Below are positions 2,952 to 59,822 of a DNA stretch of 59,822 bases, piece by piece (positions within the stretch are counted from its first letter, which is position 1; every line of letters starts with the position of its first letter). The DNA comes from an uncultured Chitinophagaceae bacterium (lineage in GTDB: Bacteria > Bacteroidota > Ignavibacteria > UBA10030 > UBA8401). The notes under the pieces were generated by a model. It ran no database searches. It was not told the DNA's origin and worked only from the letters and a program-made list of their open reading frames with translations. The stretch covers positions 507 to 60,328 of the forward strand of contig CAYIXI010000005.1 in assembly GCA_964367235.1 (NCBI GenBank). The letters run 5' to 3'. The position numbers and the translations under genes were made by a program.

Positions 2952-4073
2952 TTATTTTAATGTTTCATCAATAATTGCTCCGCCAACCAAATCATCTCCT
3001 TCGTAAAACACAACCGATTGCCCCGGAGTGATTGAGCGCTTTGGAGTTTTAAATTCAATTTTTATTTTTCCATTCCCATCACCAGTGCCATCAATTTGAG
3101 TAACAAGCGCAGTTGCTGCAAAATCTTTGTAACGGATTTTTGTATCTAAAAATTTTCCATCTTTTAGCGAATCGTATTTTTGTAAATTTAGTTGCGATGC
3201 AAATAAAGTTGTTGCGAGCAAATCTTCCTCTTTACCGATTACAATTTTATTTTCTTTATAATTTATTTCTGTAACATAAACTGGTTTGGGCAACGCAACG
3301 CCAATTCCTTTTCGTTGACCAATTGTGTAAAAGGGAAAACCAGAATGCTCTCCAATAATTCTTCCATTCATTTCGGTTTTTCCATGCGCAACTTTTTTTT
3401 CTAAATCAGGATTTTTGTGTTTTAAAAATCTTTCATAATTATTATCGGTGATAAAACAGATTTCAAAGCTTTCACCTTTGTGAGCAGTTTTCAGATTCAT
3501 TCGTTCAGCAATTTTTCGAGTTTCATCTTTCGTTAAATCTCCAATGGGAAAAATCGTTTTAGATAAAGAGCTTTGTGAGAGATTCCAAAGCATATAAGAT
3601 TGGTCTTTATTTAAATCTTTTCCTTTTGAAATAAAATATCGACCGCTCGAATTATCGAAATTAACTTTTGCGTAATGCCCCATCGAAATAAAATCGGCTC
3701 CAAGTTGCATTCCTTTTTTAATTAGTTCTTCCCATTTAATTTTTCGATTGCAAACCACACAAGGGTTTGGTGTGCGACCGTGCATATATTCGTCGATAAA
3801 ATTATCAATAATATTTTTTCCGAAAACTTCGGTAAAATCTAAAACATAGTGTGGGAAATTAAATTGGTTTGCAATAATTCTTGCGTCATTAATTCCTTCG
3901 AGCGAGCAACAACTTTTATCTCCTTCGGTTGTTCCGCCGACATCATCGTAATTGTAAGTTTTAATTGTAATGCCGATGAGTTCGAAACCTTGCTCGATGA
4001 GTAATCCTGCCGCAACTGATGAATCCACTCCACCACTCATTCCGATTATGATTTTCTTTTTTGAACTCTGCAT
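2952..4073 (-). CDS. mnmA: tRNA 2-thiouridine(34) synthase MnmA
   Basis: MSGGVDSSV PP-loop, TPNPCVVCN, KDQSY, YTIGQRKG, ITPGQ. Confidence 0.97.
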   Translation of the reverse strand: MQSSKKKIIIGMSGGVDSSVAAGLLIEQGFELIGITIKTYNYDDVGGTTEGDKSCCSLEGINDARIIANQFNFPHYVLDFTEVFGKNIIDNFIDEYMHGRTPNPCVVCNRKIKWEELIKKGMQLGADFISMGHYAKVNFDNSSGRYFISKGKDLNKDQSYMLWNLSQSSLSKTIFPIGDLTKDETRKIAERMNLKTAHKGESFEICFITDNNYERFLKHKNPDLEKKVAHGKTEMNGRIIGEHSGFPFYTIGQRKGIGVALPKPVYVTEINYKENKIVIGKEEDLLATTLFASQLNLQKYDSLKDGKFLDTKIRYKDFAATALVTQIDGTGDGNGKIKIEFKTPKRSITPGQSVVFYEGDDLVGGAIIDETLK

Positions 4074-4100
4074 AAGTAAAAATACAAATATTTGATTTAA

Positions 4101-5933
4101 CTAAAAAACAAGATCCAATTGTAGTGAGAATTGATTTTGCGTTTCATATTTATTTTCATAAATATTTTCTAATTTTTTCCGTGTGGTAGATATTTTAAAA
4201 GATAAAATCGCATCTTCGTTTATTTTCCAATTTGTGTAAAAATAAAAACGCAATCCGTTACCGTAAAGTGGGAGAAAAGAAATATTTCCAGGAATCTCAT
4301 TTTCAAATTGATAAAGCCGAGAGTTGTACGAATCGGAACTGAAAGAAATAATTCTTGAAGCAATTGAAATCTTCTCATCAAATAATTTATATTTAAAATC
4401 GGTAAATAATAAAATTCCATTTTCGCGATAAGCTAATTGGAGTAAATCGACAAATTCAATTCGCTGAGAGATTTCAAAATCATTTTTAAAATTGAAAATA
4501 AAATTAAACCGATAAGTTTTCTTATTACTATTTAAGTAGTCTTTCTGCTTAAAAAGAAAATATGATTCAATTGATTTTGAAAATTGATTTTCAATTCTTA
4601 AAGAGTATTCACGACCACTTGAAGAAAAGTCATCATTTTTTAAAATAGAAAAATCATCAATGAAACCAACGATTTTCAGCCAATCGGTAATTCTCGTTTC
4701 AATGCCAAGAATAATTCCGTTTTCGCTTCCGACAAAATTATTTTGCCTAATTGCGCCAGCAAAAGGATTTGAAAATCCATTTCGATAATTTCGAAAATGA
4801 ATTAAATAAGAAAAATATTTTTGCTCTGAAAGAAAACCAACCGCAAGTGCATTTTTATTTTTATCTGTTTTTGCGTAATCATAAAAGACTTCGCTATTTT
4901 TAAAATAATTTGTTCCACTTATTCCAATAACTGAAAATTTATTTGAATCTAAATTCATCGGCTCGTTTGAATTTATTATTTTATCGTACTTCGCATTTAA
5001 AGAGGTAAAATTGATTTCGTATGAGTTTCGTTTTGAGAATTTCGAAACAACTCCAAATATATTTTCGTTAAATATTTCTTTTCCCAAAGCAAATCCTGTA
5101 TAACTTACTGAAGAGATTATTCCCTCTTCATTTAAATTTCCAAATTTATTTCTATTTGAGTAAAATGGATAAATGGAAATGTTTTGATTCAAATTAATTT
5201 TTGAAGCAATGCCTCGCATAAATTTATATTCATCGCTTGAGCTACTTGCTGAAATTATTTTATTTGATTTCGGAATTTTTAATTCCGAGTTACTGATTGA
5301 TGAAAATATATTTTTACTAATTGCCAATCCCTCTCCAACCGAGATAGAATAATCTCCAATTATAATTTGTGGTAACGATTGACTAAAATTGTATTCAATA
5401 AATCCTGTTGTAAAACCATTTTTATAATCTTCAAACGAATCCTTTTCAATTAATAAATTTGATTTTAAATTGTGCGTTTTAAAATTTACTCTATTATAAA
5501 GCTTCAACTCTTCTTGATTTCTATTTAATAGTGGTAAAATTGACTGCGGTAAAACAATTCTATTTCTAATTTTCAAATATCCAATTTCATCTTCATTCAT
5601 CACCATGCAATATTGTAAAAGCAAAATAAATTGCGGTTTGTTTTTAAAAATATTTTTAAGCGATTTCCACGAAAAATCATTTGTTGTGTCGCGCCAATTT
5701 AAAACAATATCAATTTCCCTATTTGTAATCAGCGGAATTGATAAAAGTTCATCTTCATTTGCGGTTGATAATACAATCGGATTATCATGCAAATAAATTA
5801 ATTCCTCAATTATCATTTCTGCATTATCTTCGTTTTGAAAAGATTCAAATAATTTGTTTTCAAAATTTTTAACTCGAAGTGTATCATCAGAATTTTGATT
5901 AAATAAAAAAAGAAATGAAAATATTAAACTCAT
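4101..5933 (-). CDS. Helix-hairpin-helix (ComEA-like) N-terminal domain plus predicted outer-membrane beta-barrel
   Basis: LSTANEDELLSIPLI HhH-like motif, EKD and IIIGDYSISVGEGL segments, C-terminal beta-signal LQLDLVF. Confidence 0.7.
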   Translation of the reverse strand: MSLIFSFLFLFNQNSDDTLRVKNFENKLFESFQNEDNAEMIIEELIYLHDNPIVLSTANEDELLSIPLITNREIDIVLNWRDTTNDFSWKSLKNIFKNKPQFILLLQYCMVMNEDEIGYLKIRNRIVLPQSILPLLNRNQEELKLYNRVNFKTHNLKSNLLIEKDSFEDYKNGFTTGFIEYNFSQSLPQIIIGDYSISVGEGLAISKNIFSSISNSELKIPKSNKIISASSSSDEYKFMRGIASKINLNQNISIYPFYSNRNKFGNLNEEGIISSVSYTGFALGKEIFNENIFGVVSKFSKRNSYEINFTSLNAKYDKIINSNEPMNLDSNKFSVIGISGTNYFKNSEVFYDYAKTDKNKNALAVGFLSEQKYFSYLIHFRNYRNGFSNPFAGAIRQNNFVGSENGIILGIETRITDWLKIVGFIDDFSILKNDDFSSSGREYSLRIENQFSKSIESYFLFKQKDYLNSNKKTYRFNFIFNFKNDFEISQRIEFVDLLQLAYRENGILLFTDFKYKLFDEKISIASRIISFSSDSYNSRLYQFENEIPGNISFLPLYGNGLRFYFYTNWKINEDAILSFKISTTRKKLENIYENKYETQNQFSLQLDLVF

Positions 5934-6746
5934 TTAAAAATTAATTTCAATTGAGTAAGTGTGCGTTTCTCCCAGTTCGCGATGAAATGAATAACTGTAA
6001 TCGAAATTTGCATAATTTGTATTAACTGAAAATCCCCCGAACATTTTATTTGGTTCGGTCATAAATCCACTTCGGAGTTTAATATTTTCAGAGATTGCAA
6101 ACTCAGTTCCAAAACGATTTGAGATTTCCGTTGAAGTTTCCTTAGAAACATTCCATTCCAAAAATGTATTTTCAATCGGAATAAAATTAATTCCGACAGA
6201 ATAATTTTGAGGCAAGTCCTCGTTTGCTAATCCAATCTTTTGAGCAATTATATTTTGTATCGCAACTCCAAAATTTAAATTATTATTTATTTTTAAAATA
6301 ATTCCTAAATCCAAACTTGCCGAGTTTGCATTTCCATATTTTTCAATTGTAAGAATATGCTGATTTAAATTTAATCCAAAATATATTTCATCATTTATTT
6401 TTGTGGAGAAATTACCAGTGTAAGTTTGCTCGTTATATTTTGAATCTCCAAACTGTGAAATTGAAATCTGATAATTATTTTCTTCAAATTTATAATTCGC
6501 TGAAAGTCCTCTAAAAGAAAGTTGTGACAAATTAAATTCGCCGGGAGAAGTGTAAAATGAAAATGAATAATTTTTATTTGTATTTGTAGCGGCAGGATTT
6601 ATTAAAATGTTTTCAATTCCAAAATTAGCAATTCCACAAAATCCTTTTCCAATTAATTTTGCGCTTTGCGATTGCCTACTAAAAAAAGGAAACAGATTTT
6701 GGCTAATCATCAATAACAAAAATATCTTCTTGTTAAGTAATTTCAT
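5934..6746 (-). CDS. Outer-membrane beta-barrel protein, PorV/PorQ-like
   Basis: Signal peptide, INPAA motif, DLGII...NFGVAIQNI, terminal Phe. Confidence 0.6.
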   Translation of the reverse strand: MKLLNKKIFLLLMISQNLFPFFSRQSQSAKLIGKGFCGIANFGIENILINPAATNTNKNYSFSFYTSPGEFNLSQLSFRGLSANYKFEENNYQISISQFGDSKYNEQTYTGNFSTKINDEIYFGLNLNQHILTIEKYGNANSASLDLGIILKINNNLNFGVAIQNIIAQKIGLANEDLPQNYSVGINFIPIENTFLEWNVSKETSTEISNRFGTEFAISENIKLRSGFMTEPNKMFGGFSVNTNYANFDYSYSFHRELGETHTYSIEINF

Positions 6747-48219: not shown

Positions 48220-49485
48220 TTATTTTAGTCGGTGCAGTAAATCCCAGATTGGAGTAACAAGTCGGTAATCGCCAAAACCAGTTTCATCAACAAAAACTAA
48301 TTGACGATTAAATTCATAATAAGTCCAAATCTCATACGGTTTAGAATTCATTTCAAACGGATGTCGTTCAATATTATTTGGCATCCCAAAAATAATAAAT
48401 ACCATTCCCATATCTGTGCGCCAACCATCAGAATAGTGCGCAAAATGTTTGTTGGCATATTCAACTCTATAATAATATTCTTCAAAATATTCATTCACTT
48501 CTGTATCTTGGTTCGGATCTCTCTTTTTCCAAAAATCGTTAAATCTTTTTAATTTTTCTTCTTCCGTAATATTTCTTTCGGTAAGATTTTTGTACTCATC
48601 ATCTTTTGAAATATATTTTAGTTGACGAATCGCCAAATCAACATCTTTTATAATAATACTCGATGAACCATGTCGTGAAATTAATTTTTTAGAAATTTTG
48701 GCGCTATCTTTTTTTGTTTCGACAAAAAATTCCAATATATATTCCCCTATCGGCAATTGCGCATTTTCCATTCTTGCAATCCCCTGAATAGTACCAATTT
48801 TACAAGCTATTTTCTCAGTTTGCTCCTGTATTGCTTTTTCATCTTTACCACGAGTTTTAATTCGCAAAGTTAAACTATCGTCACAATTTTTAATGTACAC
48901 TTCGTAAAAAAATTGTAGTCCCAATTCCATCTCAGTTAAATTTGATGAAAGATTTGGCGATAAAGTTTTTTTGCCATTTTCCTCTCTTACACGATTAAGA
49001 TACATCAAATCGCTGATTTCGATTTTGTTTGAAATATAATTGCGAACTACTAATTGATTTTTTTTAACTGCAATTTTTCCTGTTTCATAATCTCGAAGTT
49101 TGATTTCTGTTTTATATTTTCCGGGAAAAACTTCAAAAGATCTTTGTGATAACTTAAATGTTTTTGCTCCAGTTGGCGAAATACTATTTGTTATAATCTC
49201 TTCGTCCCAAGATTTTTCTAAAACTACATTATCTTTTAAATCGAAAAATATTGCAATAACTTCAAAACGCGCTGTAAAAGTTTGTCCATGTTTTACAAAT
49301 CTGAGATTGTCATACGGAATCTGAACATACACATCAACGCGAGTTAATGTTGTGTCTTTGGATTTGAATGAAATAAATTCATTCTGAAAATCTGGGTTAC
49401 CAAGATCTTGATCTCGGAATGTACCTTGTTGAGATAAAAGAAAATTTACAATAAGTAAATTAAAAATAAATATTTTTTTTAACAC
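48220..49485 (-). CDS. GWxTD domain-containing secreted protein
   Basis: FWKKRDP, YYYRVEYAN, GWRTDMG, YEIWTY; GTG start. Confidence 0.9.
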   Translation of the reverse strand: MLKKIFIFNLLIVNFLLSQQGTFRDQDLGNPDFQNEFISFKSKDTTLTRVDVYVQIPYDNLRFVKHGQTFTARFEVIAIFFDLKDNVVLEKSWDEEIITNSISPTGAKTFKLSQRSFEVFPGKYKTEIKLRDYETGKIAVKKNQLVVRNYISNKIEISDLMYLNRVREENGKKTLSPNLSSNLTEMELGLQFFYEVYIKNCDDSLTLRIKTRGKDEKAIQEQTEKIACKIGTIQGIARMENAQLPIGEYILEFFVETKKDSAKISKKLISRHGSSSIIIKDVDLAIRQLKYISKDDEYKNLTERNITEEEKLKRFNDFWKKRDPNQDTEVNEYFEEYYYRVEYANKHFAHYSDGWRTDMGMVFIIFGMPNNIERHPFEMNSKPYEIWTYYEFNRQLVFVDETGFGDYRLVTPIWDLLHRLK

Positions 49486-50777
49486 TATATTTTTTCTCCA
49501 ATTAAATCGTATTCGCTCGCGCCAGTAACTTTAACTTTTATAAACTCACCAATATTTAATTTTTCTTTTGAACTGAATTTAATTGAGTTATCAATTTCCG
49601 GTGCATCAATTGCTGTTCGTCCAATGTATTTACCATTTGTCTTAACTTCAACAACTGCCTCAACTAATGAACCAATTCGTCCCTCATTTTTTTTCTTTGA
49701 AATACTCTGCTGTATTTTTAAAAGATAATCTTTTCTTGCCTCTTTCTCTTTTTGCGGAATCGGATCTTCTAAATTGAATGCAAAAGTTTCATCTTCCTGC
49801 GAATATGTAAAAACACCAAGTCTGTCAAATTCCACTTCCCTCATAAAATCGGCAAGTATTTCAACATCTTTTTCGGTTTCGTTTGGATAACCCACTATCA
49901 AAGTAGTTCGCAAAGCAATATTTTTTATCTCTTTTTTTATTTTTGAAATCAATTCCTCGGTCGTTCTTCTGGTAATTCCTCTTCGCATAGATTTTAAAAC
50001 CGTGTCGCTTGCATGTTGAACTGGCATATCTAAATATTTACAAATATTTTCTTTCTCTGCAATTATTGGTAAAATATCTAAAGGAAATTTTGCAGGATAC
50101 GCATACATTAATCTTATCCATTTTAATTTTTCGATTGTTGAAAGAGAAGTTAAGAGCGATGAGAGTTTTCTTTTTCCGTACAAATCTAATCCATAATAAG
50201 TTGTGTCTTGACCGATTACAATTAATTCTTTTGTTCCACTCTTCACAAGATTTACAACCTCAATCATAATTTCTTCAATCGGTTTTGATTTGTGCGTTCC
50301 ACGCATTAGCGGAATTGCACAAAACGAACATGGATTGTCGCAACCTTCCGAAATTTTTAAATAGGAAAAATATTTTGGAGTTGATACAATTCTTTCTCCT
50401 AACAATTCTTTTTTATATTCTGCGCCAAGCGATTTTAATAACGATGGTAAATCGTGCGTGCCAAAATATTCATCAACTTCCGGGATTTCTTTTTGCAAAT
50501 CTTTTTTATATCGCTCAACCATGCAACCCATTACAAAAACAGATTCGATTTTCTTTTTCTTTTTTAATTTTATTGTTTCAAGAATAGTTTCTATTGACTG
50601 AGTTTTTGATGCTTCAATAAAACCACAAGTATTAATTACCGCGACATCTGCATCTAAAATATTTTGAGTAACTTTTATATTGTTTCCACGCAATTGCGCT
50701 TCGAGCACTTCGGAGTCGACTGTGTTTTTTGCACAACCAAGTGTAATTATGTGAATTGATTTTGGTTTACTTCGCAT
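49485..50777 (-). CDS. rimO: Ribosomal protein S12 methylthiotransferase RimO
   Basis: TLGCAKN, NTCGFI, CDNPCSFC radical SAM motif, DAPEID TRAM domain. Confidence 0.96.
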   Translation of the reverse strand: MRSKPKSIHIITLGCAKNTVDSEVLEAQLRGNNIKVTQNILDADVAVINTCGFIEASKTQSIETILETIKLKKKKKIESVFVMGCMVERYKKDLQKEIPEVDEYFGTHDLPSLLKSLGAEYKKELLGERIVSTPKYFSYLKISEGCDNPCSFCAIPLMRGTHKSKPIEEIMIEVVNLVKSGTKELIVIGQDTTYYGLDLYGKRKLSSLLTSLSTIEKLKWIRLMYAYPAKFPLDILPIIAEKENICKYLDMPVQHASDTVLKSMRRGITRRTTEELISKIKKEIKNIALRTTLIVGYPNETEKDVEILADFMREVEFDRLGVFTYSQEDETFAFNLEDPIPQKEKEARKDYLLKIQQSISKKKNEGRIGSLVEAVVEVKTNGKYIGRTAIDAPEIDNSIKFSSKEKLNIGEFIKVKVTGASEYDLIGEKI

Positions 50778-51586
50778 TAATTTTCTTTTAATAAATTTAC
50801 ACTAAATGTATCTATCGCGGCTGAGCCAAAAACACCTATGGCGCCATTTAATTTATAACTAATTTCTTTTAAATCTGTGCCGCCAGAATTTAGTTGCATC
50901 AAATAATTTTTATAATTTTCATCAACTGCAAGAATTGAAACCACCTGCCTTCCGTAATAATTAAAAAAGAACCACGGAATATTGAATTCGTTTTTTCCGA
51001 AAAGATTAAAAATAAAATTTGTTGGCTCAGGTTTTTTCACTTCAGCACTATTTGGTCTGTTAAAATCTTTCGGAATTAAAAACGCATCCGTGGTATCCAA
51101 ACTCTTAATTGATATAATATAATCAAGGTAATTCTTGCTTCTCGTCCATTTTAATTGCAACAATCCATTTTTGTAAATCATAGGCGATGGAAATTTTTGC
51201 GTAAAACTTAAAGTCTCTGGCACAATTGTTGAGCCCGAAATCTGTTTTCCATCAACGCTAATTTGTATTTCATATTTTTTGTTTGATATTATTTTGTAAT
51301 TCGTATCGGCATTGAAATAATATCCGTGTCGTCTCGGATCATTTTTTAATTCAATAATTTTATTGCCTTCAATAATTTTTATTGTTGCATTATTGATGGA
51401 ATACGCTTCGTCTGTATAAAATACATCAATCGGTGCCGTTCTTCTTAAAATTAAACTATCAATCGGTCTTTGCGATATTAAATATCCTTGCAAAACAAAT
51501 TGATCGGAAAATGCTCCCGGTCCACTTAAATCCTCACAACTTGCAAAAATAAATATTGTCAATATAAATAAAATAATATTTTTCAT
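50777..51586 (-). CDS. DUF4249-like lipoprotein
   Basis: Lipobox FASC, C-terminal GAIGVFGS; follows a TonB-dependent receptor. Confidence 0.7.
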   Translation of the reverse strand: MKNIILFILTIFIFASCEDLSGPGAFSDQFVLQGYLISQRPIDSLILRRTAPIDVFYTDEAYSINNATIKIIEGNKIIELKNDPRRHGYYFNADTNYKIISNKKYEIQISVDGKQISGSTIVPETLSFTQKFPSPMIYKNGLLQLKWTRSKNYLDYIISIKSLDTTDAFLIPKDFNRPNSAEVKKPEPTNFIFNLFGKNEFNIPWFFFNYYGRQVVSILAVDENYKNYLMQLNSGGTDLKEISYKLNGAIGVFGSAAIDTFSVNLLKEN

Positions 51587-51589
51587 AAT

Positions 51590-53812
51590 TTAAAATTTAA
51601 ATTCCATTCCAATCGTTGGCAAGATAGGAATTAATCTCACATCTGTAATCTTTACAGGATTTTCACTTGTATCGTAATCTTTGAACCAAACATTTCTGTG
51701 ATTGTAAAGATTATAAATTTGTACATACCAACTTCCTTTGTATCCAAAAAAAGTTTTTTGTTTTGTAAATCCAATATCTAAACGATGATACGGTTCCAAT
51801 CGTCTGTTGTATCTTTCTGTTGCAAGTATGTTTTCAAATCTTCTTTCAAGTGTTGAAAGACTATATCTGCCATTGCCAACTGTAAAAGTTTGTCCCGATG
51901 CGTAAGAAAATATCATTCCAAAAGTTAAATCCTCGCTGAAATTATAATTCAGCGCAACGGAGATGTCGTGTCTTCTATCGTATTTAGGATAAAATTCATT
52001 TCCGAAATTTATTTCATCAAATTTTCTTTTTGTCCAAGCCAGAGTGTAACCAACAAATCCTGTAATCTCACCAAGTTTTTTTTGCGTAAATATTTCAAAT
52101 CCGTAAGCGCTTCCATTTCCATAATAAAATAATTTATTTATCTCAAATGTTCGCTCTCTCTGATTTTTAAACTCCAAAGTATTTGAATATTTTTTATAAT
52201 AAAGTTCTAAATTAAATTCAATATCATCTATTGGATTTGTTTCAAATGAAAAAACATAATCTATTGCGTTTGCAGGTTTCATCTTTTCATCAATCGGTAC
52301 CCACATATCAAAAAACGAAAATCCCTCCGAACCAACCAATTGCATATATTGATGATAAATTCCAGTTGAGAATTTAATCGCAAACTGATCCGAAATATTT
52401 CTCCTCACGGAAAATCTCGGATTAAAATCAAAATTTTTTGTTGCAGAATTATACTCTGCTCTCAATCCTGCTCGAAAACTCCAAAACGCAGAATAGATCC
52501 AATCATCCTGTAAATAAAGGGATAAATGAGTTGGGGTAAAATTTAAATCGTAAAATATATTTCCAGAAAATTCTCGGTAAACTTTGAAATCGTAATTACT
52601 CCACCAAAATCCTATTTTAACTAAATGTTCGTTAGTTGCATAAAAATCAAAATCTCCTTTGAACGAAATATCTTTTATGTAATTTTGAAATAAAAACTCC
52701 GAACCAACTGCGCCACCCTTTAGCGATGTATTAAAATTACTCTGAGTTAAAATAAAATTTGAAAACATTATTGGAGAAAAAATATGTGTCCACTTTAAAG
52801 ATGAAGTTGAATTGCCCCACCACAAATTCAAATTAGTTCCTTCTCCTATTTTAAAATTTAAATTATCTTTTCCGAGATAACCTGAAATTGATAATTTATC
52901 ATTTTCAGAAATATCAAAATTTATTTTTCCATTTCCATCGTAAAAATAATAAAGTGGTACCGGAAATTCACCTTCATCTAAATTTGCGAGAGAAATAATT
53001 TGGTCCAAATAAGTTCTTCGCCACGAAAGAAACCACGAACCCCATTTGATTGGTCCTTCAATTGTAAATCGGCTACTTATCATTCCAAGAGAAACTTTTC
53101 CATTTGTTTCATTTCTGTTTCCATCTTTATTCGTAACATTTAAAACTGCCGAGAGTCTTCCACCAAACTCTGCTGGCAATCCTCCTTTTATTAATTCAAT
53201 ATCTTTTACTGCATCACTATTAAATGTGCTGAAAAATCCGAAAAGATGAGATGGATTGTACACAACTGTTCCATCAAGTAAAATTAAATTTTGATCTGGG
53301 CTTCCTCCTCGAACATAAAGTCCACTTGAAATTTCTGAAGAAGATTTTACTCCCGGCATCATTTGTAATAATCTAAAAACATCTAACTCACCAACTACTG
53401 GAAGTTTTTGTAAATCTTTTATTTGAATTACAATTCGGCTGGATTGAGTTGTGATTTTTCGTTCTGCAATATCTGCCGAAATTACAACTTCGTCTAATTT
53501 TAAATCTTCAGCAGATAGTAAAACATTTAGTTTTTCATCTTTCAATAAATCAACTTGTATTATTTTATTTGCATATCCGATGATTGAAAATTTAATTTGA
53601 TGTTTACCAATAGGAATTTTTGGAATGGCAAAATATCCATAACTATTAGTTGATGCACCAATATTTAAACCAACAATTGATACATTTACGAACGGTAATA
53701 CTTCACCATCTTTTTTATCTTTTGTATATCCACTAATTGAAAATGTTTCTTGCGAAAATAAATTATCACAAAAAAATATTATCGCAAAAAAAAATAATCT
53801 ACTTAATTTCAT
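51590..53812 (-). CDS. TonB-dependent receptor with N-terminal carboxypeptidase-regulatory-like domain
   Basis: STNSYGYF, VRGGSPDQNLILLDG, HLFGFFS, GGRLSAVL, YHRLD, terminal Phe. Confidence 0.93.
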   Translation of the reverse strand: MKLSRLFFFAIIFFCDNLFSQETFSISGYTKDKKDGEVLPFVNVSIVGLNIGASTNSYGYFAIPKIPIGKHQIKFSIIGYANKIIQVDLLKDEKLNVLLSAEDLKLDEVVISADIAERKITTQSSRIVIQIKDLQKLPVVGELDVFRLLQMMPGVKSSSEISSGLYVRGGSPDQNLILLDGTVVYNPSHLFGFFSTFNSDAVKDIELIKGGLPAEFGGRLSAVLNVTNKDGNRNETNGKVSLGMISSRFTIEGPIKWGSWFLSWRRTYLDQIISLANLDEGEFPVPLYYFYDGNGKINFDISENDKLSISGYLGKDNLNFKIGEGTNLNLWWGNSTSSLKWTHIFSPIMFSNFILTQSNFNTSLKGGAVGSEFLFQNYIKDISFKGDFDFYATNEHLVKIGFWWSNYDFKVYREFSGNIFYDLNFTPTHLSLYLQDDWIYSAFWSFRAGLRAEYNSATKNFDFNPRFSVRRNISDQFAIKFSTGIYHQYMQLVGSEGFSFFDMWVPIDEKMKPANAIDYVFSFETNPIDDIEFNLELYYKKYSNTLEFKNQRERTFEINKLFYYGNGSAYGFEIFTQKKLGEITGFVGYTLAWTKRKFDEINFGNEFYPKYDRRHDISVALNYNFSEDLTFGMIFSYASGQTFTVGNGRYSLSTLERRFENILATERYNRRLEPYHRLDIGFTKQKTFFGYKGSWYVQIYNLYNHRNVWFKDYDTSENPVKITDVRLIPILPTIGMEFKF

Positions 53813-54855
53813 CCTCTTTCATATAAATATTTTGACGATTCAATCCTCGCGCCTTTCTCATCATTAACCATAAATTTTACGCCACTCCAAAGCGATCCGC
53901 AACCATATTTTCCATCTTTATTAATTGCGTAAAATTGTAAATCAAAATTTGGTTTTTTATCATCGCGAAGCAATCTTTTTTCCTTTGTGTGTTTTGCAAT
54001 TCTTTCGCAAGTAAGTAAGCATGCATCTTCTGGCGATTTTCCTTGTCTCATAAATTCGACTATCATAAAGCTGGAACAGTTGGCTAAATTTGCTTCGCCT
54101 CGTCCGGTTGAACCTGCCGCGCCAATTTCGTTATCAACATAAAGTCCTGCGCCAATTATTGGCGAGTCACCAACGCGTCCCGGAATTTTCCACGACAAGC
54201 CGCTTGTTGTTGTAACGCCGGAAATATTTCCCATCAAATCCAAACCTAAACAATTTATTGTTCCATAAGTTTGCATTACATTTTTTAAACCTTCGCCGAT
54301 ATCTTTATCATTGATTGAATGTGGTGGTAAATAATCATCTTCGGTGCTCATATTTTCTCGCCACTTAACCCATTCCTTTCGTGCCTCTTCAGTCAAAAGA
54401 TTCATTTCCTGAAATCCGTGCATGCGAGCAAATTTTAATGCACCTTCTCCGACAATTAAAACATGATCAGTTCTTTCCAAAACTAATTTTGCAACGAGCG
54501 ATGGATTTTTTATATTTCGAAGTGCCGCTACTGCGCCTGCACGATGTGTTGGTCCGTGCATTACCGATGAATCGAGCTCAACAATTCCATCCATATTTGG
54601 TAAACCGCCATATCCAACCGACATATCATTTGGGTCGTCTTCAACTATATTTACTCCCGCTACAACTGCATCAAGCGCATCGCTTCCTTTTTTGATTAAA
54701 TCGTATGCTTTTTTTACAGCTTCGATATTATTTGCACTTGCAATTACAATTGGTTGTGGGGTTTTTGATGTTGGCGATGAAAGCAGTTCGTTTGAAAATA
54801 AAGAACTTGCCGCACCAACCATTGCAGTTTTTGAAATAAAATCTCTTCTATTCAT
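53809..54855 (-). CDS. N4-(beta-N-acetylglucosaminyl)-L-asparaginase (Ntn hydrolase), Tat-exported
   Basis: NRRDFI Tat motif, SVGYGGLP, GTI nucleophile site, GRVGDSPIIGAG, TGRGE. Confidence 0.9.
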   Translation of the reverse strand: MNRRDFISKTAMVGAASSLFSNELLSSPTSKTPQPIVIASANNIEAVKKAYDLIKKGSDALDAVVAGVNIVEDDPNDMSVGYGGLPNMDGIVELDSSVMHGPTHRAGAVAALRNIKNPSLVAKLVLERTDHVLIVGEGALKFARMHGFQEMNLLTEEARKEWVKWRENMSTEDDYLPPHSINDKDIGEGLKNVMQTYGTINCLGLDLMGNISGVTTTSGLSWKIPGRVGDSPIIGAGLYVDNEIGAAGSTGRGEANLANCSSFMIVEFMRQGKSPEDACLLTCERIAKHTKEKRLLRDDKKPNFDLQFYAINKDGKYGCGSLWSGVKFMVNDEKGARIESSKYLYERG

Positions 54856-54975
54856 TTTGAAATCCTTTCAATTAATTATGTGTAAATGTAAAATATTATT
54901 TTTGAAATTGCTATTACAGTTATCAATAAACAATTATTCCACTCACCGTGTTAAGTCCGTTGGATAATAAAATAG

Positions 54976-55015
54976 AAAAATCCCAATCTATATTTCGAAA
55001 GGGATTTTTTTTTTT
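54976..55015. terminator. Terminator-like hairpin
   Basis: AAAAATCCC...GGGATTTTT plus T run; long loop. Confidence 0.5.
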
Positions 55016-55017
55016 AG

Positions 55018-55137
55018 TAACCCCGAGATTTATCTCGGGGTTAAAACTAAAAATAATTTCGGCTTTAGCCACATTGTTTTGGACTAAAGTCCGAGAGAAT
55101 GTGTGAGACTCTAAACCCCAGACTAAAGTCTGGGGTT
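55018..55137. repeat. REP-like cluster (GGCTAAAGCC family), second locus
   Basis: TAACCCCGAGATTTATCTCGGGGTTA, GGCTTTAGCC, GGACTAAAGTCC, AACCCCAGACTAAAGTCTGGGGTT. Confidence 0.75.
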
Positions 55138-55158
55138 ATTAATTTTCTCTCCTCGGTG

Positions 55159-55199
55159 GTGACTGAGTAATTCGCTAACAGCGAATGTATCAAAGTCAC
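55159..55199. repeat. REP-like palindrome GTGACTGAG...ATCAAAGTCAC with internal hairpin
   Basis: Layout as at 35094 and 39790; internal ATTCGCT-aac-AGCGAAT. Confidence 0.55.
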
Positions 55200-55210
55200 T
55201 TTGAGATTAA

Positions 55211-56713
55211 TCATTTCATCAAAATCATCTTTTTAATTTCTGTTTGTCCCAAAGGGATGCCTTTGGCATTGTTGCTTGCAAGTTTGTCCGAATGGATCGC
55301 TATGCGATAATAATAAATTCCACTTGTTAGCCCGCCAGTTTTTTGGTGGGGTAAGTTTGAAGCATTAAAATTTATCTGTTGCGGTTCGTTTGCATTTACA
55401 ATTCTATCAGCAAGTGTTGCAATTTCTTTTCCTAAAACATCGTACACTTTTAAAGTTACTTCCCCACTTTTTGCTAATTGATAATTGATTATTGTTTCAT
55501 TGTTAAAAGGATTTGGATAATTTTGATAAAGTTTAAAATCCATTTGCGATTTGGATTTACTTTTAACATTTGTAGTTTTATATGGGAAAATATTTTCTAA
55601 AATTAAATCTATATTCGCTCGCCACAATCCCCAACTATGTCCTTCGGGGAGTTCACGAGAAATAAAATTATATCCTTTTGTGTTTAAGATGTCTCTAAAA
55701 TTTCTCATATTTTGAAAAAGAGATTCATAAGAACCCCAAACCGAAACAATTTTAATATTTTTCTTTTCTGCGCTGATAAATAAATTGTATGCTTCGTAAT
55801 TATTTGATTGAAAAGCGCCAGAGTGAATTCCAAGATTTCCAAAAATGTTTGAATAATTATAACTAATCAAAGCGGAAATATTTCCTCCGTACGATGCACC
55901 CAAAACAAGTCGCTTACTATTTTGATTAATTGTGCGGTAATTATTTTCGATAAAAGGAACCAACTCATCAACAAAAAATTTTATGTATTGATTTCTTTTT
56001 CCGCCAGCATATTCATCATTTCGATTATTTGGTTTAACAAAAACTGCAATCACTTCTTCAATTTTCAAACTGTCAATTAAATTATCTAAAACTAAATTTG
56101 CAGAAGCGAGCGAAACATATTCCGAGCCATCTTGAAAATAAACAGTTGGATATTTTCTTGTATTGTTTTGACTGTAACTCGGTGGCAAATAAATTTGCAA
56201 TTGATGAGTTGCGGCTAAATTTATACTTGCAATAGTTTTATTTTCAATTGTACCGTGCGCGATATTTGGTCGGTTGATAATTTCCCATGGCTGAATATAA
56301 TTTAGCATTGAAAGTTCGCTGTTCGGTCCAAATCCGCCGTAGCAATAATTTGGATTAAGAGGATCTAAAATCCAATTACTTCCGTTTAAAATAAATTTGT
56401 AATCCAATCTCGCATTGGCTTCAAAATTTTTTGATAAATAAAATAAATTTGTGCCACTTAAATTTGTAAGATTTAACATTGCACTCCATCCATTAAAATC
56501 ACCAGCAACAGAAACTGAATTTGCGCTACCACGATAAATAAAAATTGCAAAATTATTTTCAATCAAAGGAAACTTGTTGGCAACAATAAAGCTATCAATA
56601 GTTGAAGATTTTATGCTTAAATCGTTAATCAGATTAACTCTTAAAATAAAATTATTGAAATTTGTTTGAGAATAAATTTGAATGGCGAAAAAGATAATCA
56701 ATAATTTTTTCAT
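55211..56713 (-). CDS. Secreted alpha/beta-hydrolase esterase with N-terminal CBM48/E-set-like domain and T9SS type A sorting domain
   Basis: SVAGDFNGW, YKFILNG.WILDP.NP, GASYG nucleophile elbow, EGHSW, YQNYPNPFN...VYDVLGKEI...SGIYYY...KKMILMK. Confidence 0.9.
   Translation of the reverse strand: MKKLLIIFFAIQIYSQTNFNNFILRVNLINDLSIKSSTIDSFIVANKFPLIENNFAIFIYRGSANSVSVAGDFNGWSAMLNLTNLSGTNLFYLSKNFEANARLDYKFILNGSNWILDPLNPNYCYGGFGPNSELSMLNYIQPWEIINRPNIAHGTIENKTIASINLAATHQLQIYLPPSYSQNNTRKYPTVYFQDGSEYVSLASANLVLDNLIDSLKIEEVIAVFVKPNNRNDEYAGGKRNQYIKFFVDELVPFIENNYRTINQNSKRLVLGASYGGNISALISYNYSNIFGNLGIHSGAFQSNNYEAYNLFISAEKKNIKIVSVWGSYESLFQNMRNFRDILNTKGYNFISRELPEGHSWGLWRANIDLILENIFPYKTTNVKSKSKSQMDFKLYQNYPNPFNNETIINYQLAKSGEVTLKVYDVLGKEIATLADRIVNANEPQQINFNASNLPHQKTGGLTSGIYYYRIAIHSDKLASNNAKGIPLGQTEIKKMILMK
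55244..55270. repeat. 27-bp double-hairpin element, copy 2 (in-frame within CDS)
   Basis: TTGTCCCAAAGGGATGCCTTTGGCATT encodes NAKGIPLGQ on the minus strand. Confidence 0.85.
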
Positions 56714-56744: not shown

Positions 56745-56815
56745 TGCCTCGTCGTCTAATGGCAGGACGGCAGACTCTGACTCTGCCTATCGAGGTTCGA
56801 ATCCTTGCGAGGCAG
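56745..56815 (+). tRNA. tRNA-Gln(CTG)
   Basis: Acceptor TGCCTCG/CGAGGCA, anticodon arm GCAGA-CTCTGAC-TCTGC, T loop TTCGAAT; CCA not encoded. Confidence 0.95.
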
Positions 56816-56842
56816 CAACCATTAACTTAATATAAACAAAAA

Positions 56843-57403
56843 ATGAAAAATTTATCAATCATAATTTTAACAATATTTTTTTCAAATCTTATGAATGCAC
56901 AAAATAATTTCTACTCAATTAAAGTAAAAGACATTGACGGAAAAGAATTTACTTTAGATGAGTATCGAGGTAAAACAATTTTAATTGTAAATGTTGCCAG
57001 CAAATGTGGATACACTCCGCAATACGAAGGATTAGAAAAACTTTACGAAAAATATAAATCTAAAGATTTTGTCGTTTTAGGTTTTCCATCAAATGATTTT
57101 TTGTGGCAAGAGCCCGCGGAGGAAAGAGCAATTAAAGAATTCTGCACTTTAAATTACGGAGTAACTTTCCCAATGTTTTCTAAAATTGAAGTTTTGGGTA
57201 AAGGTCAACATCCACTTTATAATTTTTTGACGCAAGAAAAAACAAATCCAAAATTTCACGGACGGATAACCTGGAATTTTAATAAATTTTTAATCGACAA
57301 AAATGGAAAAATTGTAAATCGATTTGATTCAAAAATTGAACCGCTCTCAAAAGAAATTGTCGAAGCTGTACAATTAACAATTTATCCGCCTAAGGCGGAT
57401 TAA
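56843..57403 (+). CDS. Glutathione peroxidase family protein (Cys type)
   Basis: NVASKCGYT (TGT codon), LGFPSNDF..QEP, WNFNKFLI. Confidence 0.93.
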   Translation: MKNLSIIILTIFFSNLMNAQNNFYSIKVKDIDGKEFTLDEYRGKTILIVNVASKCGYTPQYEGLEKLYEKYKSKDFVVLGFPSNDFLWQEPAEERAIKEFCTLNYGVTFPMFSKIEVLGKGQHPLYNFLTQEKTNPKFHGRITWNFNKFLIDKNGKIVNRFDSKIEPLSKEIVEAVQLTIYPPKAD

Positions 57404-57408
57404 CAGTT

Positions 57409-57435
57409 AATGCCAAAGGCATCTCTTCGGGACAA
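57409..57435. repeat. 27-bp double-hairpin element, copy 3 (inverted)
   Basis: AATGCCAAAGGCATCTCTTCGGGACAA. Confidence 0.85.
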
Positions 57436-57479
57436 TAAAAAATATTTTCAATAACTGTTAATTGATAACTGATAATTGT

Positions 57480-58415
57480 TCAATGTTCAAGCCATCGTTC
57501 CGCATCAATTGCCGCCATGCAACCTGTACCAGCGGCAGATATTGCTTGTCTATAATATGAATCGGCAACATCGCCAGCGGCAAAAACACCCGATATAATA
57601 GTACGAGTTGAACCAGGCTCAATTTTTAAATATCCTTTTTCATCAAGTGGCAAAATATTTTTAAATAATTTTGTGTTTGGCTCATGACCAATCGCAAGAA
57701 ATAATCCATCGGCTTTTACTTCGGTTATTTCATTTGTCGAAATATTTTTTAAATTCAAGCCCGTCATTTTCTTTTTATTGTTTGAAGTTTCTCCAAGCAC
57801 TTCATCAACAACTGAATTATACACTACTTCAACTTTCGGATTTTTTAATAATCTTTCAATCATAATTTTTGATGCGCGAAATTCATCGCGACGATGAACT
57901 AAAATAACTTTCGATGCAAACTTAGTTAAAAAATTTGCCTCTTCCATCGCAGAGTCTCCTCCTCCAACGACATAAACGATTTGATTTTTGAAAAAGAAAC
58001 CATCGCAAGTTGCACAAGCCGAAACACCATAACCCATATATTCCGTTTCGCTCTGAATATTTAAAAGTTTTGCTTTTGCGCCAGTTGAAATTATTACACT
58101 ATCGGCAGTAAACATTTCTTCATCGACAAATATTTTAAAAGGTCGATTTGAGAAATCAACTTTCGTTACAGTTTTGTAAATTGATTTCGCTCCAAATCGG
58201 TGCGCTTGATTTCGAAAAATATCCATCAATTCTGGTCCCATAATTCCATTTACAAATCCGGGATAATTTTCAACTTCGGTTGTGATTGTAAGTTGTCCGC
58301 CGGGTTGCTCGCCTTCAAAAATTATTGGCGAAAGATTTGCGCGACTTGCATAAATTGCCGCAGTAAATCCTGCAGGACCTGAACCGATTATTAAAACTTT
58401 ACTGTGATTAGACAT
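57480..58415 (-). CDS. trxB: Thioredoxin-disulfide reductase
   Basis: GSGPAG, GGQL, CATCDG, GGGDSA, AAGD. Confidence 0.97.
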   Translation of the reverse strand: MSNHSKVLIIGSGPAGFTAAIYASRANLSPIIFEGEQPGGQLTITTEVENYPGFVNGIMGPELMDIFRNQAHRFGAKSIYKTVTKVDFSNRPFKIFVDEEMFTADSVIISTGAKAKLLNIQSETEYMGYGVSACATCDGFFFKNQIVYVVGGGDSAMEEANFLTKFASKVILVHRRDEFRASKIMIERLLKNPKVEVVYNSVVDEVLGETSNNKKKMTGLNLKNISTNEITEVKADGLFLAIGHEPNTKLFKNILPLDEKGYLKIEPGSTRTIISGVFAAGDVADSYYRQAISAAGTGCMAAIDAERWLEH

Positions 58416-58427
58416 ATTTTCCTTTAA

Positions 58428-58565
58428 TTATTTTTTTAAGATTTCTGCATTTCGTTTTAAGTTATTTAATTTTATTCTTTTAATCGGAGAATTTTTAAAC
58501 CTCTCCAAATATTTTTCATCATTCATTTCTAAAATATTTTCTAAATTCAAGTTTGTTTCATTGTT
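58428..58565 (-). pseudogene. Orphan 3' fragment of queG (last 45 codons plus stop)
   Basis: Translates to NNETNLNLENILEMNDEKYLERFKNSPIKRIKLNNLKRNAEILKK*; 28/45 identical to the queG C-terminus encoded at 59200-59340. Confidence 0.9.
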
Positions 58566-58587
58566 TCGCGTGTGTCTTACCAATGGA

Positions 58588-58719
58588 CACTAACGGTTTG
58601 GGGGTTGGCGAAGGTTGGGGATTCAAAGTACAAATGTTCAATTTAGTACAAATGTTTATTAAATGCAGAAACACTAAAACCCGCACTAACTCGGCAATTG
58701 AATATACACGCTGTTATGA
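58588..58719 (-). mobile_element. attC-like recombination site downstream of a small ORF
   Basis: Minus strand: stop, 6 nt, TCATAAC ... ~120 nt ... GTTAGTG; the AAC/GTT ends resemble attC core boxes, internal pairing is poor. Confidence 0.5.
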
Positions 58720-58725
58720 GATGGG

Positions 58726-59001
58726 CTATTTCATGCTTAAAACTGTAAAAAATGTCCCAATACAGTAACATACAATTAAGATGAGCTGACTTGTTTTCTC
58801 TGGTTTTGAATCACCACCCCAAGTTGTCACATTAACCAAAAAACCTAATGTTCCAAATGAGTAGAATAATGCTGATAAAATCATTGGAAAGTTTTTCTCA
58901 AAAAATTCACAATTCATTTTACCAGTGAAAAAAATTGTTGTTAATATCACAACAGATATTACAGCAAGGAATTTCAAATATGACATAATGACTTCTTTCA
59001 T
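58726..59001 (-). CDS. Small orphan membrane protein (gene-cassette-like)
   Basis: 91 aa, three hydrophobic segments, followed directly by the attC-like site. Confidence 0.65.
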   Translation of the reverse strand: MKEVIMSYLKFLAVISVVILTTIFFTGKMNCEFFEKNFPMILSALFYSFGTLGFLVNVTTWGGDSKPEKTSQLILIVCYCIGTFFTVLSMK

Positions 59002-59038
59002 ATTTAATCTTATTTTAAAATTATTGTTTTGATGTGTT

Positions 59039-59167
59039 CTACTGTTTCAGCACATTTGATAAACTTCTTTCATCATATTGCCCATTTCCGGTTACACTTT
59101 CAAATAGCCATTTTTTTGGTGTATATATTTTGTAATATTCTCTAAGTAATAGTAATATTTTTTCTGA
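59039..59167 (-). pseudogene. Internal fragment of a tyrosine integrase (Bacteroidota XerD/integron-like type)
   Basis: Translates to SEKILLLLREYYKIYTPKKWLFESVTGNGQYDERSLSNVLKQ*, the LREY..Y.P..WLFE....Y..RS segment that precedes the HxLRH box; no start codon or flanking domains. Confidence 0.75.
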
Positions 59168-59183
59168 TTTAAATTATAATGTT

Positions 59184-59200
59184 GAACTCCTGCGGAGTTC
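59184..59200. repeat. REP-like palindrome touching the queG stop codon
   Basis: GAACTCCTGCGGAGTTC preceded by AATGTT; same family as 39551-39574. Confidence 0.7.
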
Positions 59201-59822
59201 TAATTTTTTTTTATTAATTCTGCATTTCTTTTTATCCCAATTAATTTTATTCTTTTAATCGGGCTATTTTTAAATCTTGTTGAAAAATCATTTTGAGTCA
59301 GATTTGTAATCTCTTCCAAATTCAAATTTGTTTGATTGTTAATCGGCGAAAATACTTTTACATCGCTCATAGTTTCAAACCTATTCCACGGACAAACATC
59401 TTGACAAATATCGCAACCAAAAATCCAATTGTCAAATTTTTTACCAATTTCATTTTCGATTTCACCGCGATGCTCAATGGTTAAATACGAAATACATTTG
59501 TTCGAATCAACCACATACGGCTGAACTATTGCATTTGTTGGGCAAGCATCGATGCATGCTGTGCAACTTCCGCAAAAATTTTCGCTTGGCAAATCGCTAT
59601 CAAGTTTAGTTGTGGTTAAAATTGTAGCGAGAAAAATCCACGAGCCAAAATTTTTTGAAATTAAATTGCTATGTTTTCCTCTCCAACCAATTCCAGATTT
59701 TTGTGCGAAATATTTTTCCAAAATTGGACCTGTGTCAACATAAAATTTATATTCTCCGTTAGTATCAATTTCTTTGATGCAATCAATCAGCAATTTTATT
59801 TTCGCTTCCAAAACTTCGTGGT
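59200..59822 (-). CDS. queG: Epoxyqueuosine reductase QueG (5' part outside window)
   Basis: VDTGPILEK, GSWIFL, CGSCTACIDACPT, CISYLTIE, FGCDICQDVCPWN. Confidence 0.95.
   Translation of the reverse strand, partial: HEVLEAKIKLLIDCIKEIDTNGEYKFYVDTGPILEKYFAQKSGIGWRGKHSNLISKNFGSWIFLATILTTTKLDSDLPSENFCGSCTACIDACPTNAIVQPYVVDSNKCISYLTIEHRGEIENEIGKKFDNWIFGCDICQDVCPWNRFETMSDVKVFSPINNQTNLNLEEITNLTQNDFSTRFKNSPIKRIKLIGIKRNAELIKKN

Follow-up and report, generated by a model that had tools for sequence, protein, structure and literature searches.

A diverged second end of queG stranded before trxB: a probable footprint of 3'-end displacement in an uncultured Bacteroidota genome

The gene for epoxyqueuosine reductase (queG) of an uncultured Chitinophagaceae bacterium is followed, on the same strand, by a second and diverged version of its own last 45 codons, which stands immediately in front of the thioredoxin reductase gene, trxB. 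The locus lies in a stretch of 59,822 nucleotides (nt), here called the window, which corresponds to C5:507-60328 (contig CAYIXI010000005.1) of a metagenome-type assembly of 1.99 Mb and 69 contigs (GCA_964367235.1); all genes of interest at the locus are on the minus strand. We consider it probable, at roughly 60%, that the locus is the footprint of a 3'-end displacement that was anchored by homology in queG and closed by a non-homologous joint on the other side. The ancestor would have had queG running straight into trxB. Incoming DNA from a closely related lineage, carrying a queG end, a hairpin and an open reading frame (ORF) for 91 amino acids (ORF91), would have entered by a homologous crossover inside queG and by a non-homologous joint at 58565/58566, 45 codons before the resident queG stop. 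By this means queG would have gained a new, functional set of last 45 codons (the live or current tail), and the resident 45 (the old tail) would have been pushed about 775 nt downstream, where they would persist untranslated, as a relic from which trxB still draws its ribosome-binding region and possibly its promoter. The module would later have been passed among strains by ordinary homologous recombination, being present in some and absent in others. The polarity of the event (old tail resident, current tail incoming), its one-sided homology and any promoter role are matters that we infer.

Results

The two ends of queG

A frame of 51 amino acids (aa) at 58583..58428 (minus strand) was aligned with the queG part of the window without gaps, giving 28 identities and 34 positives in 45 residues (BLASTP, E = 2e-16 in a single comparison). 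At the nucleotide level, a repeat search recovered one direct repeat of 135 nt (58431-58565 and 59206-59340), which was 73% identical with a spacing of 775 nt. The onset of homology is abrupt (58565/58566 in the old tail, 59340/59341 in the live gene), and homology stops at both stop codons (TAA at 58430..58428; TAG at 59202..59200), with no alignable sequence beyond either; the live stop is followed by a hairpin and the old-tail stop by the trxB leader, which are mutually unrelated. The locus therefore consists of an intact gene and, downstream on the same strand, a copy of its 3' end alone that starts abruptly. An abrupt start and an end at both stops are what two orthologous gene ends with unrelated flanks should give, and are unlikely for a mechanical duplication.

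The tails differ at 36 nt, 7 of them within the 28 codons for identical residues and 29 within the 17 differing codons. Synonymous swaps were seen at Ser26 (TCT/AGC), Arg38 (CGA/AGA), Arg22 (AGG/AGA), Asn5 (AAC/AAT) and Leu8 (TTA/TTG). Between the old-tail stop and the trxB ATG at 58415 there are 12 nt (58427..58416, reading TTAAAGGAAAAT on the minus strand), which contain an AGGA/AAGGAA run resembling a Shine-Dalgarno sequence, and the insert between the queG stop and the old tail measures 634 nt (58566-59199). The first-pass annotation of this DNA was accurate in all these respects: it had given the fragment as 28/45 identical to the queG tail, with AGC/TCT serine and AGA/CGA arginine exchanges (here Ser26 and Arg38), had placed its end 12 nt before the trxB ATG with a Shine-Dalgarno sequence between, and had estimated the cargo at about 630 bp.

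A separate observation concerns 58661-58679 (plus strand), a run of 19 nt in the segment next to the old tail that is 84% complementary to both tail ends (AAATGCAGAAA core). This inverted match is compatible with chance; it could also be a third, inverted scrap of a queG end.

The first-pass annotation had named a chimeric assembly as one outcome that would overturn its view. The stretch is contained in 20 public runs from seven studies, and four runs from four studies (X9, X17, X18 and X19) were aligned at a likeness of at least 85%; the check was made on contigs, not raw reads. X9, which belongs to another study, provided a single contig of 18,520 nt (depth 322) that spans 57300-59822; it departs from the window at 10 letters, none of them above 58386. 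The joint at 58565/58566 was crossed by contigs in X18 (58055-58591) and X19 (58397-58797), and the stop and hairpin side by contigs in X17 (58497-59279) and X18 (59163-59331). At contig level the arrangement is not chimeric, and the stranded tail is real DNA.

Gene order in relatives

With the queG part as query, a match was found in 39 of 41 family and order genomes (the window's own included), and 29 loci were fetched. In 26 of these trxB lay directly 3' of queG on the same strand; of the other three, one ends inside queG. The gaps between queG and trxB ranged from about -17 to 237 nt, plus one of 555 nt in genome G008. Two relatives also have the convergent glutathione-peroxidase gene (gpx), with queG-trxB gaps of -1 and 15 nt. 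Upstream, a metallo-beta-lactamase-fold (MBL-fold) gene, a Rieske gene or both stood 5' of queG in 21 of the 29 loci, as they do in the window, and the gene next after queG in relatives had 62-79% identity to the window trxB. Only the 775-nt insert is out of place in the window genome by comparison. On this comparison the ancestral order was queG followed directly by trxB, and the ancestral junction proposed in the first-pass annotation, with the adjacency it predicted in relatives, was recovered. The pre-insertion state, with queG joined directly to trxB, was seen in those 26 loci and in none from within the species.

Close relatives were scarce. The nearest queG was about 60% identical among the species genomes and 65-66% identical among all proteins searched, the exception being P0001, which is from the same species (96%). 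When metagenome contigs were scanned with the queG part, the best 80 of 597 relatives were all at most 55% identical and no same-genus relative was among them; the search patterns were dominated by the Fe-S motif.

Two alleles or a decayed duplicate

A profile was built from the queG tails of 119 relatives; on it the old tail scored 55.0 bits and the live tail 69.2 bits. In a neutral simulation, 36 random substitutions were placed on copies of the live tail, and 1000 such copies scored 12.7 bits on average and 42.0 at most, so that none reached 55.0. In 20,000 neutral trials the open frame was kept in 11.7%, at least 28 identical residues in 0.13%, and both in 0.02%. Relative-rate counts (sites where the old tail agrees with the outgroup against sites where the current tail does) were symmetric, at 5:4 for P0002, 5:6 for P0003 and 6:6 for P0015; a dead copy that was drifting should give lopsided counts, and the symmetry argues for two alleles. 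Similarly, across the 17 differing positions each tail had 7 states found in P0002 or P0003.

Other comparisons set the old tail further from the family. It had the family-majority state at 2 of the 17 differing positions and the live tail at 7, and 106 of the 119 relatives were closer to the live tail than to the old one. Differences between the tails were distributed 15/8/13 by codon position, a weak signature of simple purifying selection. It is possible, on these comparisons and on the absence of Gly35 and Phe19 from the old tail, that it has undergone some relaxed constraint, or that it is simply the more unusual allele. The two tails nevertheless appear to be diverged functional alleles and not a gene end with its decayed local duplicate, as judged from 45 codons, which give low power, and with a ratio of non-synonymous to synonymous change (dN/dS) of 0.73. 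The statement in the first-pass annotation that both versions had evolved as protein was upheld by the conserved core and by the profile fit (55.0 bits against a simulated maximum of 42.0), but not by a low overall dN/dS.

Variation among strains

Within the tract 58387-59430, pieces lying wholly inside it had no differing letters in the four runs, apart from one 1-base gap at 58600. The exceptions were two short X19 contigs at 59284-59398, with 15 and 4 differing letters, which represent further alleles in that community, and one short-form contig in X17 (described below) that differs at the live tail. The tract begins 29 nt inside trxB, takes in the old tail, the cargo and the live tail, and reaches 90 nt into the queG body. 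Its flanks were more variable: trxB differed at 13 of 1048 letters in X17 (about 1%), and queG above 59431 at 27 of 573 letters in X17 and at 23 each in X18 and X19 at shared positions (about 5-7%). A near-invariant tract between diverged flanks suggests recent spread by homologous recombination into backgrounds that had already diverged.

It was also observed that the species has two queG body alleles about 5-7% apart, one in the window and X9, the other in X17, X18, X19 and P0001. The boundary between them is sharp, at about 59431, with identity below it, and marks a recombination breakpoint inside queG. P0001 has the body differences of X17-X19 at the protein level and a tail identical to the live tail.

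The cassette is polymorphic within one sample. Run X17 contains a short form, on a contig of 1360 nt (depth 8.95), in which trxB continues up to 58436 and is followed by 231 letters and then by 59206-59279 with 6 differences. The joint runs from 58436 to 59170, and only the last 21 nt before trxB are common to this form and the window. Its trxB-queG spacer is about 246 nt in contig coordinates, as against 784 in the window; there is no room for ORF91, and the old tail is not present at a likeness of at least 85%. In the same run the contig that bears the cassette has a depth of 4.71. Contigs of the long and the short form both terminate at 59279 and the one carrying queG begins at 59250, so that the two forms differ only below 59250, adjoining the longest run that the tails share identically (22 nt). 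This run codes for the most conserved residues of the tail and is a natural place for later homologous crossovers between diverged alleles; a crossover there would explain why the X17 forms differ only below 59250.

The relic is invariant across strains, and its youth is the simplest explanation for its retention; possibly it also counts that no insertion at this place could do without an intact trxB leader. A scan for promoters of the sigma-70 type found 6 sites against 5.8 expected, including one per tail at the same coding motif (58498..58469 and 59273..59244), and was not above chance. Retention of the old tail as the promoter of trxB is therefore speculative.

A second case and other insertions after queG

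A total of 105 loci with a complete queG end were searched for a repeat of their own tail, and one was found. This locus, L091, is on a 1.5-Mb metagenome contig and its queG is 46% identical to the window queG. The order is p450, queG (3692-4621), a gene for a 374-aa AhpC/TSA-thioredoxin-like (TlpA-like) protein (4748-5872), the tail copy and, at 6105, a malic-enzyme gene. The tail copy comprises the last 23 queG codons with their own stop (5987-6058), and the 7 nt differences in 21 shared codons are all synonymous. In five relatives of L091, p450/queG was followed by the malic-enzyme gene with a gap of only 60-250 nt; two further relatives (L081 and L086) carry inserts of other kinds there, about 1 and 1.7 kb long. 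L091 represents an independent case in an unrelated lineage, with the same architecture and, to judge from its substitutions, a much cleaner signature of selection; the parallel makes displacement at the window locus more credible.

The locus with the best queG match, in G008 (L006:2110-2665), has a different small hydrophobic membrane ORF in its 555-nt insert between queG and trxB. A second copy of the queG tail was not found in that insert.

The intervening DNA

A search of 1.84 billion representative proteins returned 17 homologues of ORF91 at E<=1e-3, the best at 76% identity, with the family motif GTLGYLV..TWGG..PEK..Y.LGT. In eight of these homologues, with lengths of about 180-197 aa, there is an extra N-terminal domain of about 90 residues. 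Searches of Pfam, PHROGs and PADLOC gave no hit for ORF91 itself at E<=0.01; DUF6249 was hit weakly by one of the 18 aligned family members (E = 7.7e-4) and phrog_29868 by one (E = 1.7e-3). A search for look-alikes gave a best score of 0.89, below the lead threshold of 0.9, and hence no family. By family profile, ORF91 occurred in 2 of 401 genomes of the phylum, this one included, and in none of the 9 genomes sampled from its own family. ORF91 is a real, sporadic accessory gene of a rare and unnamed family of small membrane proteins, and from its sequence it is predicted to have three membrane helices.

The 634-nt insert, ORF91 included, is single-copy in the genome. When the cargo was compared with the genome and with 113 further loci by translated and short-word searches, a distant ORF91 relative in L116 was the only match. 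The 160-nt segment at 58566-58725 is likewise single-copy and had no translated match; the spacer at 59002-59183 has no ORF of at least 60 aa; and Rfam gave no match at E<=1 for 58300-59400. The hairpin at 59184-59200 belongs to a small set in the genome, with similar copies on contigs C4 and C21. Non-homologous and, by the distribution of ORF91, horizontally acquired DNA thus lies between the new end and the orphan, and the description of the intervening DNA as incoming cargo in the first-pass annotation agrees with the rarity of its gene.

Layout of the locus

The features of the locus are listed in Table 1. Identification of the live gene as queG is based on Pfam (Fer4_16, 1.4e-24, and the end of QueG_DUF1730), on an alignment with 120 homologues and, for its full length, on P0001, an uninterrupted, full-length protein of 304 aa to which the queG part is 96% identical. 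It fits QueG in having DUF1730, a double 4Fe-4S domain and the conserved C-terminal F..SP.KR.K..G..RNA; every name given by the source among the 120 homologues listed was epoxyqueuosine reductase. The N-terminal part of the gene lies beyond both the window and a scaffold gap.

This gap consists of 100 N inside queG, just past window position 59822 (L001:2924-3023 = G000:C5:60329-60428). It is bordered on both sides by the same 55 nt and breaks the frame of queG in the deposited scaffold. Since the two joined contigs overlap by these 55 nt, the gap is spurious.

The spacer between gpx and trxB (window 57385-57469) has hairpins such as ATCCGCCTAAGGCGGAT and reached a depth of 11,229 in X9, against about 320. 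Many loose ends with similar CT..GG-loop hairpins occur here, and the spacer is a short repeat common to many loci or organisms in these samples.

Table 1. Features of the queG-trxB locus, in window coordinates
Feature	Position	Strand	Basis or remark
queG (epoxyqueuosine reductase), last 206 codons and TAG stop (59202..59200); gene extends past window end	59200..59822	-	Pfam
Live (current) queG tail, last 45 codons	59206..59340	-	Direct repeat copy; 69.2 bits on tail profile; protein identical to P0001 tail
Longest run shared identically by both tails, 22 nt, coding PIKRIKL	59241..59262	-	Partner at 58466-58487
7-bp hairpin GAACTCC-TGC-GGAGTTC, overlapping queG stop	59184..59200	T-run on + strand	Terminator-like site
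AT-rich spacer 5' of ORF91	59002..59183	-	Guanine-plus-cytosine (GC) fraction 0.26 for 59002-59199
ORF91, cargo gene, 91 aa, predicted three-helix membrane protein	58726..59001	-	Homologue search
GC-richer segment, 160 nt; its end at 58566 is the putative non-homologous joint	58566..58725		GC 0.41 against 0.33 for the genome
Stranded old queG tail, 45 codons and TAA (58430..58428), without queG body upstream	58428..58565	-	
Spacer of 12 nt, old-tail stop to trxB start	58416..58427	-	Shine-Dalgarno-like AGGA
trxB (thioredoxin reductase)	57480..58415	-	Pfam Pyr_redox_2, 2.4e-48
gpx (glutathione peroxidase), convergent on trxB	56843-57403		
tRNA-Gln	56745-56816		

Discussion

Several observations weigh against a displacement in which the old tail was resident. 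Every same-species sequence seen (P0001, the aligned runs and the cassette-free strain) has a tail of the current type, and no intact queG ending in an old-type tail was found in P0001, the aligned runs or the queG homologues. Two protein word-index searches with the 51-aa fragment also returned nothing, which is weak evidence, given that the tail type of the window's own queG was not returned either. The short form in X17 is without ORF91 and the old tail and yet has a current-like tail and the hairpin. As for the tails themselves, dN/dS over the 45 codons was 0.73 overall, and the old tail lacks Gly35 and Phe19, each of which occurs in 98% of relatives. Both tails share states that are rare in the family (Ile31, in 0 of 119 relatives; Asn2, 2%; Thr4, 5%), which an origin in situ would also explain. 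These shared residues suggest that both tails come from the same narrow clade. Of the foreign queG allele supposed in the first-pass annotation, the diverged second allele is retained, but its donor must have been a very close relative. A current tail native to all relatives was among the outcomes that the annotation had set as refuting it. The polarity that the annotation assumed, from resident old tail to incoming current tail, runs against the uniformity of tails within the species, and we hold to it provisionally.

The X17 short form implies that the current tail and hairpin could be native and the old tail imported with the cargo. Under such a reversed polarity, the block from ORF91 through the 160-nt segment to the old tail, perhaps with the 5' end of trxB, would have come from a related lineage, the site of an earlier displacement, through homologous recombination, and would have replaced a shorter native spacer like that of the short form. 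This is unlikely in our judgement. In its favour, the short form retains a tail of current-like type together with the hairpin region, its likeness to the window on the trxB side being confined to the final 21 nt of the spacer; comparable hairpins are present at other places in the genome; P0001 combines the current tail with the queG body variants of X17-X19; and the cassette tract is nearly invariant across strains with differing flanks. However, reversal only moves the origin elsewhere, because a truncated tail beside trxB still requires a displacement. The tight 12-nt junction between the old tail and trxB is also the native junction type of the nearest syntenic relatives, and the short-form spacer may itself be a later replacement.

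A broader proposal, which we rate as distinctly unlikely, is that the 3' end of queG is a recurrent slot for the exchange of cassettes, each carrying a single gene and its own gene end and swapped at the run coding SPIKR.K. Such swaps, were they to occur, would leave stranded tails, and strains would differ in the content of the slot. The proposal is prompted by the presence of stranded tails in two unrelated lineages (this genome and L091), by the other inserts found behind queG in G008, L081 and L086, by the long and short forms within one sample, and by allele differences that begin adjoining the 22-nt run. If it were true, and if a dedicated mechanism were responsible rather than RecA choosing the only identical stretch, the locus would be a new type of chromosomal cassette site that needs no linked integrase.

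Some genomic islands and prophages insert at the 3' end of a gene and bring a substitute for that end with them. The locus resembles them in that the target gene would be kept intact by a 3' end supplied with the insert, which is bordered by a partial direct repeat of that end. It might accordingly be the remnant of a site-specific integrative element that restored its target, with the 22-nt run as crossover core and with the integrase and most of the element lost. Direct repeats at both ends of the insert, including the 22-nt identical run, would fit this explanation, as would the confinement of differences between the X17 forms to positions adjoining that run and the start of the L091 repeat at the same conserved motif. 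We regard it as improbable. Unlike such islands, the locus had no integrase, transposase or recombinase domain in the 14 largest flanking ORFs (window 48220-56713, about 8.5 kb on the downstream side, and C5 60772-68243, about 7.5 kb on the upstream side as far as the contig end), all of which were of housekeeping types; nor did an integrase or transposase lie within about 11 kb on the one side or within about 8 kb, up to the end of the contig, on the other. The insert is only 775 nt long and holds a single small gene, ORF91. Protein constraint explains the identical run, where AT-rich preferred codons specify the most conserved residues (SPIKR.K); the run would also be a preferred RecA crossover point between diverged alleles. 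Furthermore, the repeat reaches 78 nt beyond the run on its 5' side, an extension not required of an attachment site.

Duplication of the end of queG in tandem and in situ, followed by long divergence and by insertion of ORF91 between the copies, is likewise improbable. No known sequence is closer to either tail than the other tail is (28/45, against 27 and 26 for P0002), the two have family-rare residues in common, and the dN/dS value and the loss of Gly35 and Phe19 from the old tail would suit a decaying copy. Against this, a dead copy with 27% divergence should not have kept both its frame and its fit to the profile (none of 1000 simulated copies; 0.02% of 20,000 trials), the relative-rate counts are symmetric, and the boundary of the copy coincides with the stop codon. 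The old tail is also invariant where the flanking genes differ by 1-7%, and hence young in its present place. Lastly, a chimera of two strains' queG ends is scarcely credible. The assembly is of metagenome type in 69 contigs, has a 100-N gap with a duplicated 55-nt overlap inside queG past the window end, and comes from a species in which several queG alleles co-occur in the same samples, but a chimera was rejected at contig level by the X9 contig from a different study (depth 322, no difference above 58386) and by the contigs of X17, X18 and X19 that cross the joints.

Displacement of the queG 3' end through one-sided homology thus remains the preferred explanation, and it has precedents. The first-pass interpretation is supported in part; of the two routes that it had offered, homology-facilitated illegitimate recombination and integration with restoration of the target gene, we favour the former. 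Homology-facilitated illegitimate recombination was reportedly described by de Vries and Wackernagel in 2002 and by Prudhomme and colleagues in the same year. As far as the account in PMC3240628 goes, the process is known from transformation and conjugation; the likeness lies in one homologous and one illegitimate end, with a net insertion of foreign DNA beside the anchor, and the difference in that the experimental work had known donors, while here the event is reconstructed from sequence. Sequential displacement by this route was proposed for effector genes of the type VI secretion system in Vibrio cholerae (Kirchberger et al. 2017, PMC5361080). In that proposal, a homologous upstream anchor is likewise combined with an illegitimate far joint, the old 3' end is shifted downstream, and modules then spread among strains by ordinary homologous recombination; unlike here, selection was argued and immunity genes were retained, and at both loci the mechanism is a proposal.

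Displacement of C-terminal regions in rhs genes and polymorphic toxins (Jackson et al. 2009, PMC2935791, cited in PMC5361080) offers a further comparison, so far as those accounts describe it. In both cases a constant 5' part gains a new 3' end together with downstream DNA, and the old end becomes an orphan downstream on the same strand. Unlike the rhs genes, queG encodes a housekeeping enzyme of tRNA modification, its two ends are orthologous alleles (62% identical) and not unrelated toxin domains, there is one orphan and not an array, and the cargo does not, to all appearance, encode immunity.

The locus would therefore add a new example, in an unusual, housekeeping setting, to a known type of event (3'-end displacement through one-sided homology), and is otherwise a fairly ordinary insertion footprint. 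Its value may lie in being a clean natural example, outside the toxins, of how a single accessory gene can enter a tightly packed housekeeping operon with neither neighbour broken: the incoming DNA would have restored the end of the upstream gene, and the displaced end would remain as the leader of the essential gene downstream. Stranded tails can mislead gene callers and assemblers. We know of no isolate for these environmental genomes, and in such genomes relics of this kind may date and orient insertion events and mark slots that vary among strains. The population data provide a small case study of the spread of a module, with cassette-bearing and cassette-free forms together in one sample.

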